Below are positions 16,076-19,208 of a DNA stretch of 64,000 nucleotides, piece by piece. Origin of the DNA: Candidatus Parcubacteria bacterium (GTDB lineage: Bacteria; Patescibacteriota; Minisyncoccia; SURF-38); contig QZJN01000014.1 of the NCBI GenBank assembly GCA_003599335.1, positions 1,432-65,431 of the forward strand, written 5' to 3'. Within the stretch, counting starts at the first letter, position 1; each line of letters begins with the position of its first letter. The notes under the pieces are model-generated. The model saw nothing but the letters and a program-made list of their open reading frames with translations, was not told the origin of the DNA and made no database searches. The translations under genes were made by a program, and so were the position numbers.

Positions 16076-16084
16076 AACCAAAAA

Positions 16085-16120
16085 CAACATTCCAACATTC
16101 TGCAGAATGTTGGAATGTTG
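16085..16120. repeat. Perfect 36-bp palindrome CAACATTCCAACATTCTGCAGAATGTTGGAATGTTG (PstI-site centre)
   Basis: Read directly from the sequence. It lies between the PKD gene stop and the arsR start. Confidence 0.8.
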
Positions 16121-16144
16121 TGGGGAGTGTGATATACAGGAGGT

Positions 16145-16411
16145 ATGAAAACGGCTAAACAGTTGGAGAGATATTGTAAAGGCGCGGCAAACCACCGGCG
16201 CATCGCGATCTTATCTGTTGTTGAAAAAGAGAGCGGGATTACGCTTGAGGAAATTGCGGAGCGGCTGAGCGCCAACCTTAAAACTATCTCTCAGCATACC
16301 CGATCGTTGGTTCAGGCGGGGCTTTTGAGTAAAAAGTATCAAGGGCGCGCAGTGACTCATCAACTCTCGCCCTACGGAAGGGCTTTTGTCAGATTTCTAA
16401 AATCATTCTAA
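16145..16411 (+). CDS. ArsR/SmtB-family transcriptional regulator
   Basis: 88 aa; ANHRRIAILSVV...ITLEEIAERLSANLKTISQHTRSLVQAGLL is a typical ArsR winged-HTH. Confidence 0.7.
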   Translation: MKTAKQLERYCKGAANHRRIAILSVVEKESGITLEEIAERLSANLKTISQHTRSLVQAGLLSKKYQGRAVTHQLSPYGRAFVRFLKSF

Positions 16412-16434
16412 CATTCTGCAGAATGTTAGAATGA
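16403..16434. repeat. Perfect 32-bp palindrome TCATTCTAACATTCTGCAGAATGTTAGAATGA, overlapping the arsR stop
   Basis: Shares the 18-bp core AACATTCTGCAGAATGTT with 16085-16120. Confidence 0.8.
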
Positions 16435-16540
16435 TGTGGGGGTGGGGTGTGTGGGAGTTGGGGTGTGTGAGGGGATGGGCGCGAAGGTGTGTGGAGGTGT
16501 GAGAGAGTGGGTTGGTGGTGAAGGTTTGATTTTGATTGTG
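16435..16540 (+). repeat. GT-only low-complexity tract with many GGG/GGGG runs (G-quadruplex-prone)
   Basis: About 100 nt composed almost exclusively of G and T, of the form (GGGTGTGTG)n. Confidence 0.7.
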
Positions 16541-16615: not shown

Positions 16616-16789
16616 ATGCGAAGAAAATTGAAGGAGAAAAATATACGAAAACTCGCCCGGATGGGCAACCGGAGTCTAGGATTAACCTTGCCGGTGGAGA
16701 TGGTTAATAAGCTAGGTTGGCGTGAAAAGCAGAAGGTGCTTTTGAGAATGAAAGGTAAACAGATAATCGTTAAAGATTGGAAGGGATAA
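16616..16789 (+). CDS. AbrB/SpoVT (MazE-like) swapped-hairpin DNA-binding protein, 57 aa
   Basis: Below the ORF-track cutoff. RKLARMGNRSLGLTLPVEMVNKLGWREKQKVLL fits the SpoVT/AbrB domain. The stop lies 3 nt before the next ORF, and a TATAAT box ends 2 nt before the ATG, so the transcript may be leaderless. Confidence 0.5.
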   Translation: MRRKLKEKNIRKLARMGNRSLGLTLPVEMVNKLGWREKQKVLLRMKGKQIIVKDWKG

Positions 16790-16792
16790 CTC

Positions 16793-17485
16793 ATGATTAC
16801 AAAAATCAAAAAATCTAATGACGCGACAGCTTATCTAAAAACTTCTGTTAATAAAATATTAAATTATTTACGGAAGATAGTTAGTAATAAAAAATTTAAT
16901 TATAGAACTTTCGGCACTAGTATAGAAGAACATCTTACCGATATTTTGGTTAAGTTATTTACGGAGGGTGGTTTTATAGAAAATAATAAAGATTACGTTG
17001 TTGCGCTCAATAAAAATTATTTCCCAGATTTTGAATTAAAAACCACGCCTCCACTTGCTATTGAGTTTAAATCTGGTAATAAGAGTCAGTATAGAAAGGA
17101 GAAGTGGGTTGTTGTTAAAAACAGCGAGAACGATATGGGAACATTAAATGAATGGCCACAAAAAATTAAGAAATTTGGCGGGGATAACATTTATTATATT
17201 TTCGTTATTTATAATTTTAATGATCAAACTGAAGAGGTTTTAAATGTTGAAATAGCTCCATTCTACCAATTTATAGGATTGAATAAGGGAAAGGTGCTTA
17301 AATATAGAGAGAAAGATGGCAACTTGAGGCCAAAAGATTTTGAATCTAATTCTCCTATAAAGACCTTAAAACAATTTGAAGATTTATTGAATAAAACTGT
17401 AATTTATAGATCTAAACGAGTAATCAAAAAACACCGTTCGATTATTAAAAAAGTTGCTCAAACTTCTAAAAAAGAGTTGGGCTAA
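16793..17485 (+). CDS. Putative PD-(D/E)xK nuclease (candidate Type II restriction endonuclease)
   Basis: 230 aa. Motif E(EEHLTD)...FPD-x12-EFK fits a PD-(D/E)xK catalytic core. The gene is convergent with, and overlaps by 20 nt, the DNA methyltransferase gene. Confidence 0.45.
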   Translation: MITKIKKSNDATAYLKTSVNKILNYLRKIVSNKKFNYRTFGTSIEEHLTDILVKLFTEGGFIENNKDYVVALNKNYFPDFELKTTPPLAIEFKSGNKSQYRKEKWVVVKNSENDMGTLNEWPQKIKKFGGDNIYYIFVIYNFNDQTEEVLNVEIAPFYQFIGLNKGKVLKYREKDGNLRPKDFESNSPIKTLKQFEDLLNKTVIYRSKRVIKKHRSIIKKVAQTSKKELG

Positions 17486-19028
17486 CTAATTTTTTATTTT
17501 GTTTTTTATTGTAGTTGAATTTAGGGTTGTCTATAGGATAAATGCCCTCATCTTCGGATATAGTTAAGTTCCTTAAATACTTTGAGGCAGTTTCGGGAGT
17601 ATTGCCGTTATATTTATAACCATTACTTGAACGATAATTTACTTTATCAAGTTTATTTGCGACGATTTTTTTATATTTTGGATCTATATCAATACCAATA
17701 TAATTTCGTCCGAGGCGTTTTGCGGCAAGCGCAGTTGTCCCTGCTCCAATGAATGGATCTAACACTACATCCCTTTCATCTGTAGTCATGAGTATCAATC
17801 GTTCCAATAAAGGTTCTGGGAGTTGGCATGGATGAGCGTCTCTCCGAGCGTTATGCCGAATGCGGTGTATATCTGCCCACACATCGCTTAAAAGTGTTCC
17901 ATGAGGGTGTATTTGGTTTTTCTTCCCCCCATAATCTTTAATCATTTCTCCGCAGATCCTGCATTTTTTGTGAGGTGATCTTAATTCATGAAATTTAAAT
18001 CCTTTCTGAGTTTTTGTATAAAATAAGATGCCATAATGTGCGGGTAATAGCGTTTTTCCAAGAGGCGTGCTCATTGAATCCCAAGCAATCCAGTGTTTAA
18101 ACACAGCAATTTTGTTAAGATGGTTAGCATAGTAGGTCAACCATTTTGGTATATTATGAATAAAGATTGAGCCTGTTGGTTTAGTTATTCTAACCATTTC
18201 GGTTAGCCACAACTCACACCATTTTATATAATCATCAGTTGTTTTTTTGTCTTTATAATTTCCATACTTTTTATTTAAGTTGAATGGCGGGTCTGCAAAT
18301 GTCATATCCACCGAGTTATCAGGGATCTTTTTCATTTCACTAATAGAATCTCCGCACAGGATTTCGTTCAGAGGAAGTTTTTTGTATTGTTTAATATCGT
18401 GTTTAATTTCTGGCAAAATGATAGGAGTTGTAAATTCATCTCGGATAACATCAATGACTATCCCTTGGATAGAAATATCCTTATCTTTTTTTATGATGAT
18501 TGGCTCCATGCTTTTGTTTGCCGGTTGTAATCTGATATGGCCGCGCTCTTTATAGAATTTCTTTAGGGTTGCTTCCTGATTGTCTATGAGGGCGACAACT
18601 TTTTGGCCGTTTTCGGCTGTGGCTTGATGTTTTACTAAAATAATATCTCCATCATTAATATTTTCATCAACCATGCTATTGCCAATCACTTTTAAAGCGT
18701 AAATCTCTCCGGAAGAGGGGAGTTTGTTTTTTGGCACGGCAATAGTTTCTTTTTCTTGAACCGCCTCTATGGGTTCGCCAGCCGCGATAGTGCCAAGGAG
18801 TGGAATTTTAACCATCGACTCCGTTTCAGTAATATCTATTGCCCTGTGTTGATTCCAGCCTCGTTTTAAATATCCCTTTGCTTGTAGCTTTGATATATGT
18901 TCATGAATATTTGAGGGGGAGGATAAACCGAAGTGGTCGGCTATCTCTTCAAGAGAGGGAGCGTACTGGTGCTTTTTTATGTATTTTTGGACGTAGTCCA
19001 AAACTTGTTTCTGACGTTTGGTAAGCAT
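17466..19028 (-). CDS. LexA-like repressor (HTH + S24 autopeptidase) fused to a beta-class DNA methyltransferase (N6A/N4C)
   Basis: The N-terminus MLTKRQKQVLDYV...LEEIADHFGLSSPSNIHEHISKLQAKGYL matches the LexA DNA-binding domain. The AAGEP Ala-Gly cleavage site, GNSM Ser and ATLKKF Lys define an intact S24 domain. After a linker come the MTase motifs IV (DMTFADPPFN) and I (VVLDPFIGAGTTALAA) in beta-class order. The track start at 19049 is GTG; ATG 19028 matches the LexA N-terminus. Confidence 0.65.
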   Translation of the reverse strand: MLTKRQKQVLDYVQKYIKKHQYAPSLEEIADHFGLSSPSNIHEHISKLQAKGYLKRGWNQHRAIDITETESMVKIPLLGTIAAGEPIEAVQEKETIAVPKNKLPSSGEIYALKVIGNSMVDENINDGDIILVKHQATAENGQKVVALIDNQEATLKKFYKERGHIRLQPANKSMEPIIIKKDKDISIQGIVIDVIRDEFTTPIILPEIKHDIKQYKKLPLNEILCGDSISEMKKIPDNSVDMTFADPPFNLNKKYGNYKDKKTTDDYIKWCELWLTEMVRITKPTGSIFIHNIPKWLTYYANHLNKIAVFKHWIAWDSMSTPLGKTLLPAHYGILFYTKTQKGFKFHELRSPHKKCRICGEMIKDYGGKKNQIHPHGTLLSDVWADIHRIRHNARRDAHPCQLPEPLLERLILMTTDERDVVLDPFIGAGTTALAAKRLGRNYIGIDIDPKYKKIVANKLDKVNYRSSNGYKYNGNTPETASKYLRNLTISEDEGIYPIDNPKFNYNKKQNKKLVSPTLF

Positions 19029-19037
19029 GCTTTTATT

Positions 19038-19071
19038 ATAACTTAACACCCGAAAGAAAACCGAAAGTTAT
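19038..19071. promoter_or_regulatory. Candidate operator: inverted repeat ATAACTT-N20-AAGTTAT enclosing direct repeats CCGAAAG x2, overlapping the -10 of the lexA-MTase gene
   Basis: Read from the sequence immediately upstream of ATG 19028 on the minus strand. A TATAAT box (reverse complement) lies ~6 nt before the ATG. Confidence 0.35.
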
Positions 19072-19121
19072 CCACACAAGAAATCATTGTTTGGCGTGCT
19101 GAAAAGTAGTATAATATAGGT

Positions 19122-19208
19122 AATTAAATAATGGTTAAAAGGGGCGCTCGCCCCGACTGAGGACCTACGAAGTAGATTTAAAGCCGGGGCAACCCCGGCT
19201 TGTTTATT
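19122..19208 (+). ncRNA. Candidate small RNA or terminated leader (~87 nt)
   Basis: Promoter TTGTTT(19087)-17-TATAAT(19110), then hairpin GGGGCGCTCGCCCC and a terminator AGCCGGGG-CAA-CCCCGGCT + TGTTTATT (19182-19208). No ORF is present. Confidence 0.35.

Follow-up and report, generated by a model that had tools for sequence, protein, structure and literature searches.

Restriction-modification (R-M) systems need modification to stay ahead of restriction, and we know of no account of how DNA damage and repair synthesis are dealt with in type II systems. A gene in a 64,000-nucleotide stretch of DNA from a Candidatus Parcubacteria bacterium (contig QZJN01000014.1, positions 1,432 to 65,431; the whole stretch is called the window here) raises this question directly: it joins a LexA repressor in frame to a DNA methyltransferase (MTase), and a nuclease gene runs towards it from the other side. 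Why should a modification enzyme carry the cell's DNA-damage sensor? We propose that the locus is a type II R-M cassette with a self-repressing MTase, that this repression is lifted by RecA-stimulated self-cleavage, and that the outcome is protective; we put the probability of this reading at roughly 0.55. Protection of the host DNA is then probably tied to the DNA-damage signal.

The fusion gene lies on the minus strand at 17466..19028 and, judged from the open reading frame list, the Pfam and NCBIfam matches and its homologues, encodes 520 aa from an ATG at 19028, with its stop codon at 17466-17468. A preliminary description of the sequence had counted 527 codons. That frame is indeed open (17466..19049, minus strand, 527 aa counted from a GTG), but the true start is almost certainly the ATG, because the GTG falls within the promoter/operator repeat, a TATAAT hexamer ends 6 nt before the ATG, and the orthologues all start with MLTK or MITK. 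The N-terminal 197 aa belong to the NCBIfam lexA equivalog TIGR00498 (202.5 bits against a cut-off of 110.95), and profile searches on both halves gave LexA_DNA_bind (PF01726, aa 2-63, 5.8e-19), Peptidase_S24 (PF00717, aa 76-192, 5.6e-31) and N6_N4_Mtase (PF01555, aa 240-456, 3.8e-51). The complete N-terminal LexA read from the letters by the preliminary description is thus borne out. Its winged helix-turn-helix (wHTH) DNA-binding domain (18834..19028, minus strand, aa 1-65) has the recognition helix S-N-I-H-E-H, and the Peptidase S24 catalytic and dimerisation domain follows at 18453..18803 (minus strand, aa 76-192). Comparison with the E. coli and Thermotoga LexA structures aligned the segments AAGEP, GNSM and TLKK on the Ala-Gly site (A84-G85), S119 and K156 of E. 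coli LexA; the corresponding residues, Ala83-Gly84 (codons at 18777..18782, minus strand), Ser118 and Lys156, form the intact autocleavage set that had been claimed.

The LexA part runs into the MTase through a variable linker (18372..18437, minus strand, aa ~198-219), whose columns are weakly conserved in alignment A1 and whose AlphaFold2 (AF2) confidence, given as the predicted local distance difference test (pLDDT), is <50 across aa 198-215. There is neither a stop nor a frameshift at the junction, as expected from the earlier reading of a linker of ~20 aa without a stop. The MTase domain (17619..18371, minus strand, aa 220-470) shows the motif order of the beta class of N6/N4 enzymes, with DPPF (motif IV, aa 246-249) ahead of FIGAGTT (motif I, aa 426-432), and its closest solved structures in the PDB, M.MboIIA, CcrM and M.RsrI, are all beta-class, which agrees with the class first assigned. 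The protein ends in a conserved tail, YRSSNGYKYN...SKYLRNLTISEDEGIYPIDNP (17469..17618, minus strand), with invariant or near-invariant columns in alignment A1 and no domain match. This is therefore not a stand-alone LexA of ~200 aa but a 520-aa protein with a C-terminal MTase. The gene databases differ at this locus: GenBank records only a 347-aa MTase (P0080, 17466-18509), begun at an internal Met within the S24 domain, so that the LexA head is absent from the annotation, and the JGI gene call is the full 520 aa.

The neighbouring gene (16793..17485, plus strand) encodes a 230-aa protein, is convergent with the fusion gene and overlaps it by 20 bp at the 3' ends. It has 269 homologues and no Pfam match; its PD...ExK motif (D79, E91 and K93) is invariant, and the protein models as an EcoRV-like restriction-endonuclease (REase) fold carrying this catalytic motif, in line with the convergent PD-(D/E)xK nuclease candidate of the preliminary description. 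The nuclease partner was present and convergent in 10/10 genome loci of the window's MTase family. This strict co-occurrence of the fusion with a family-specific nuclease establishes, at the level of gene content, the R-M module that had been suspected. An orphan CcrM-like MTase without a nuclease was considered and ruled out by the family-specific REase partner. Chloroflexi, Poribacteria, Ignavibacteria and archaea possess homologues of the MTase domain at 60-68% identity that are accompanied by neither the LexA head nor this nuclease, a distribution typical of a horizontally spread R-M methylase, and the GC content of the cassette is 0.29-0.37 compared with 0.42-0.47 in its flanks. A palindrome-avoidance test on the 64 kb was underpowered and gave no guess at the recognition site.

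How widespread is the architecture? A search for it recovered the in-frame fusion in >110 sequence clusters with 65-80% identity over the full length, drawn from independent assemblies in NCBI, JGI, ENA and Logan. We also scanned metagenomes with the LexA part alone as seed and obtained 80 loci with heads 56-72% identical to that of the window. Complete in-frame fusions made up ~70 of these, only three encoded a stand-alone LexA, and the C-terminal halves fell into at least 17 MTase families with <45% identity between them. Motif IV of the fused MTases reads DPPY, SPPY, DPPF, DPDY, DPPW, DIPY or DPAY, and in the longest fusions the MTase half is made up of gamma-class N6_Mtase/Eco57I/TaqI_C domains, a C5 DNA_methylase or permuted N6_N4 domains, so that near-orthologous LexA heads in Patescibacteria sit on beta, gamma and C5 MTases. 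The autopeptidase residues are nearly always retained: of 85 fusions, 82 have AG, 83 have GxSM and 84 have T-L-K. Fusions of 483 and 497 aa also occur on two IMG/VR contigs classed as viral (L172 and L173), where the operator sits immediately past the -10; no full-length fusion was found in GenBank phage records. The preliminary description knew of no such architecture, and this stands insofar as we found no description of a LexA-MTase fusion in the searchable literature, a scope outside which the study of the Patescibacteria SOS network by Sanchez-Osuna et al. (2017) lies; that the fusion was already noted there is unlikely, though far from negligible. A 2025 review of R-M biology makes no mention of LexA. 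The window's gene is nevertheless not a one-off but a member of a large family of LexA-MTase cassettes.

The restriction side of these cassettes varies along with the MTase. MTase families match one to one with families of downstream partner genes, which are usually convergent and overlap the fusion at the 3' end. A Pfam scan of ten partner representatives, one of which proved to be a controller (C) protein, matched six to RE_TaqI, Endonuclease_7/HNH, MutH-like, BglII, MamI and BsaWI; of the other three, one matched only DUF6996/DUF6997 and two had no match. Homologous C proteins of 73-87 aa, of the HTH_3 (helix-turn-helix) type, are encoded directly upstream of the restriction (R) gene in 21 loci across six MTase families, and by this arrangement the HTH_3 gene and R are a classical C-R operon. 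The window lacks a small HTH_3 gene at this place. Instead, a 57-aa AbrB/MazE-like DNA-binding protein (16616..16789, plus strand; PF04014, 1.3e-06) is encoded 3 nt upstream of R; no homologue of it was found among the other cassette loci, and it is a candidate controller, possibly a non-homologous replacement of the C protein.

What would the LexA head do on an MTase? The promoter of the fusion gene points to an answer. A direct repeat, TTTCGG-N5-TTTCGG (TTTC-N7-TTTC, 11-bp period), lies over the core promoter at 19047..19069 (minus strand) and is the putative LexA operator; it scores 22.5 with our position weight matrix (PWM) and is the single match of at least 14 in the 64 kb. The -10 hexamer TATAAT, read from the sequence, follows at 19035..19040 (minus strand). 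Since it ends 6 nt upstream of the ATG and a Shine-Dalgarno sequence is absent (19029-19040), the fusion mRNA is probably leaderless, and the same layout of -10 and ATG occurs in ~15 related loci. The operator is present at ~84/86 related promoters in the general form (T/G/C)TTC-N7-(T/G/C)TTC with an 11-bp period, placed between -35 and -10 or just past the -10 in either orientation. At a threshold of at least 15 bits, the PWM found 85 matches in 656 kb of fusion loci, about one per locus, and 3 in 1.08 Mb from other phyla. No operator was found upstream of the R or C genes in the window or in the fusion loci.

The half-sites vary together with the recognition helix. TTTCTA and TTTCGA pair with the helix S-T-A-H-F/Y/H-H, and TTTCGG and its variants pair with S-T-I/V-H-E/Q-H, so that a half-site ending in A goes with F, Y or H and one ending in G with E or Q; the pairing held for 35 versus 23 unique combinations with zero exceptions, a count that ignores kinship. 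These comparisons establish a co-variation between operator and DNA-binding domain. The repeat overlaps -35 and -10, is all but confined to these promoters and changes in step with the recognition helix. Together this makes a strong comparative case for repression of the fusion's own promoter by the LexA head through the direct repeat, and binding of the operator by the head is strongly suggested. The preliminary description did not contain this operator, which is the first direct evidence, in the form of a sequence signal, for control of the fusion gene by its own LexA head. Direct-repeat LexA boxes of the form GTTC-N7-GTTC are found in Alphaproteobacteria (PMC8565304).

The conserved promoter block has a sharp left edge, the motif TGTGGATAAC (19067..19076, minus strand), just upstream of the -35 region. 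Followed by a T, it is a perfect DnaA-box consensus (TTATCCACA), and a DnaA input at this site is possible. The 656 kb of Patescibacteria loci contain 54 copies, 49 of them no more than 260 bp ahead of the start of a lexA-MTase gene. This concentration, together with the single exact copy in the 64 kb, led us to discard the idea that TGTGGATAAC is a promoter element of general use. We also rejected a role as one of a pair of terminal recombination sites, since a second copy stands near the far end in only 3 loci.

From these elements we infer the following course of events. Two LexA heads, joined through the S24 domain, would bind the 11-bp-spaced repeat over their own core promoter, and MTase synthesis would become self-limiting by the same logic as in the SsoII, Ecl18kI and EcoRII fusions. 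Upon DNA damage, phage attack or self-restriction, RecA assembled on single-stranded DNA would stimulate self-cleavage at Ala83-Gly84; a recA gene was found in related genomes. Cleavage would free the S24-MTase fragment from the operator and de-repress the promoter, and the net effect would be a burst of modification while repair synthesis makes unmethylated DNA, a counterpart, for type II systems, of the restriction alleviation that SOS induces. Stronger transcription of the modification (M) gene into the convergent, overlapping R gene may in addition dampen R. RecA-dependent cleavage and the physiological direction of the response are predicted parts of this course: we think that cleavage is used because AG, Ser and Lys are kept in >96% of 85 fusions, and we favor a protective outcome because cleavage and de-repression would be coupled and because type I systems need restriction alleviation after damage.

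Several observations weigh against this proposal. The full-length AF2 model is poor in the MTase half (pLDDT 53.6) and is uninformative on inter-domain contacts. The operator half-site and the residue of the DNA-binding domain could merely mark clades through shared ancestry. In the window itself, the AbrB-like gene stands in for the usual C protein upstream of R. Rare variants without the S24 domain imply that cleavage is dispensable in some lineages: P0113-P0115 (L168, 3510-4709; L170, 2185-3363), proteins of 392-399 aa with an MTase of the same family as the window's, retain the DNA-binding domain of LexA. They also have the TGTGGATAACT motif, which in L170 differs at one position, the repeat TTTAGG-N5-TTTAGG and the convergent partner gene. 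Their half-site, TTTAGG, is a third one and goes with a different recognition helix, and the promoter layout that they retain speaks for the operator. Finally, the outcome would reverse if the S24-MTase fragment were degraded after cleavage.

The proposed cassette can be compared with several known systems. MTase-repressor fusions are an established mode of R-M control, as in M.SsoII, M.Ecl18kI, M.EcoRII and M.MspI (PMC12707154). Like these enzymes, the window's protein has an N-terminal DNA-binding domain on an MTase and a predicted binding site in its own promoter, an arrangement by which expression tracks the amount of MTase (PMC12707154). Unlike it, the SsoII type has short HTH regions on C5 MTases and usually divergent M and R promoters, whereas the window combines a full LexA and S24 head on a beta-class MTase, with relatives on gamma and C5 MTases as well, with convergent genes, and its repression is expected to be reversible by damage. 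Relative to the known MTase-repressor fusions, the novelty is a whole LexA with its autopeptidase as the head, recurring on all major MTase classes. With LexA proper (TIGR00498) the head shares the wHTH, the Ala-Gly site, the Ser-Lys dyad and a predicted auto-operator, whose repeat resembles the alphaproteobacterial GTTC-N7-GTTC; it differs in its 320-aa C-terminal MTase, in having no detected regulon beyond its own gene and in sitting in an exchangeable R-M cassette.

The restriction side recalls PvuII, BamHI, Esp1396I and EcoRV, because the 21 related loci with an HTH_3 C protein upstream of R have a C-R operon convergent with M. Unlike in those C-protein systems, M has a separate regulator, the LexA head, and the window has the AbrB/MazE-like gene in place of C. 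With CapH/CapP, CapW/BrxR and CapK/CapS, immune systems are reported to be de-repressed by a DNA-damage signal, in CapH/CapP through proteolysis of the repressor; those regulators are separate genes for whole operons, whereas here the sensor and repressor would lie within the protective enzyme and act by the RecA/LexA route. Type I restriction alleviation has the same purpose as that proposed here, to avoid self-restriction when repair creates unmodified sites, but there host ClpXP degrades the HsdR nuclease, and here the modification enzyme would be boosted transcriptionally.

The boundaries of homology between cassettes suggest how MTases of so many families came to be attached to one head. 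Between loci whose heads are close relatives (80-93% identity in DNA), homology sets in abruptly at -51 to -55, at TGTGGATAAC, and wherever the MTase families differ it ends at ~+590, the end of the S24 domain. On the far side, a locus of the window's MTase family (L009) and two loci of another family (L094/L096) have the C gene in common. Since the homology of the heads ends at the MTase and the far-side C gene is shared, MTase-REase cores appear to be exchanged between two conserved regulatory ends. Outside these ends there is little in common. Both the window and L001 have a tetratricopeptide repeat (TPR) gene upstream of lexA, which is also matched by a short terminal fragment in L111, and on the far side of R both the window and L109 have an ArsR-like gene; the other upstream neighbours are mostly unrelated (43 singletons).

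Could the fusion instead be the cell's only LexA, running a general SOS regulon with the MTase as a passenger? This is compatible with the proposal above, and we hold it possible but not probable. The LexA equivalog score speaks for it, as does the absence of a second lexA from the window. A profile-free search of 1.8 billion representatives further showed that relatives at ~50% identity or more are mostly proteins of 380-890 aa with an N-terminal LexA, and that 200-aa stand-alone LexAs turn up only at 49% identity or less; of the stand-alone clusters sampled, 3/10 had a source name or a long contig, and these led to other phyla (Gemmatimonadales, Deltaproteobacteria and a 4.2-Mb contig). The repair regulon gave a mixed result. 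The recA promoter of one locus (L082) has a 13-bit operator-like site beside its -35, a single weak site, but three other Parcubacteria recA promoters have none, no recA locus has a match of at least 15 bits, and nothing further was found elsewhere in ~720 kb; the scan of the 64-kb window and the 656 kb of flanks gave no second operator. We tentatively suggest a joint reading, in which the fusion would be the only LexA and each activation of RecA would both release and over-produce the MTase, a built-in type II restriction alleviation, while MTase-REase cores of any class would be swapped by recombination into a fixed docking frame, with the lexA head as its left part and the C gene as its right part.

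Two features of a Yanofskybacteria recA locus (L165, 12109-13053 and 5870-6000) are recorded here for their own sake. It contains bAvd and a reverse transcriptase, which resemble a diversity-generating retroelement, and its recA leader carries three copies of the half-site-like TTTCTAA at 8-9 bp spacing, which misfits the operator model.

A second alternative has the same architecture and reverses the outcome. The preliminary description had already raised SOS-triggered cleavage followed by de-repression, addiction or an abortive-infection-like logic as possible consequences. Cleavage would expose degrons, the S24-MTase fragment would be destroyed and modification would collapse while the stable REase persists, so that damaged or phage-infected cells die, in the manner of abortive infection or post-segregational killing keyed to RecA. 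In E. coli, both fragments of cleaved LexA are degraded by ClpXP and Lon, which counts in favor of this alternative, as does the report that R-M systems behave as addiction modules and induce SOS (PMC3874152). We nevertheless consider it unlikely: cleavage would also de-repress the promoter, so that full-length protein would be made anew, killing of the host at each SOS episode would be costly for small genomes with limited repair, and the sequence gives no sign of fragment instability.

It is similarly doubtful that the head is only a dimeric DNA-binding repressor of the SsoII kind, with the S24 domain serving for dimerisation and with neither self-cleavage in vivo nor a link to damage. The S24-less variants, which retain the operator and the R partner, fit such a role, and some bacteria reportedly have non-cleaving LexA-like proteins (PMC4759255), but the preservation of the cleavage site and of both catalytic residues across the fusions would be hard to explain without selection for cleavage. 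That adjacent lexA and MTase genes were joined by a sequencing error, as the short MTase gene of GenBank on this contig might suggest, is dismissed, with hardly any residual doubt, by the open frame in the window and by the same in-frame junction in the >110 clusters and ~70 full-length loci with many different MTases.

Some further features surround the cassette. A perfect palindrome of 38-43 nt with CTGCAG at its centre occurs twice (16083-16125 and 16399-16441; the copies are 88% alike), on either side of a gene for an 88-aa ArsR/MarR-like wHTH protein (16145-16411), and a G/T-rich tract (16436-16530) then precedes the AbrB-like/REase operon. Two GC-rich hairpins with T-runs (19181-19201 and ~19128-19150) stand shortly before the lexA-MTase promoter, in the divergent intergenic region, at a place where none of the annotated genes has its end. 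They may act as insulating terminators or belong to a small RNA that is missing from the annotation, and Rfam gave no match at either. The Rfam scan of the whole window returned one tRNA only.

An MTase that carries the cell's DNA-damage sensor would, if our reading is true, be a direct answer to the problem that damage poses to type II systems, and it would extend a recent theme, the wiring of bacterial immunity to signals of DNA damage. That the fusion recurs with at least 17 MTase families of three structural classes suggests that the physical link is under strong selection and speaks against a fusion by chance. GenBank mis-annotates at least the window's copy, and the conserved head and operator together provide a marker for new R-M systems, and hence for new restriction specificities, in uncultured bacteria. 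The finding also bears on the organisation of the SOS response in the Candidate Phyla Radiation, whose closest LexA relatives are mostly these fusions.

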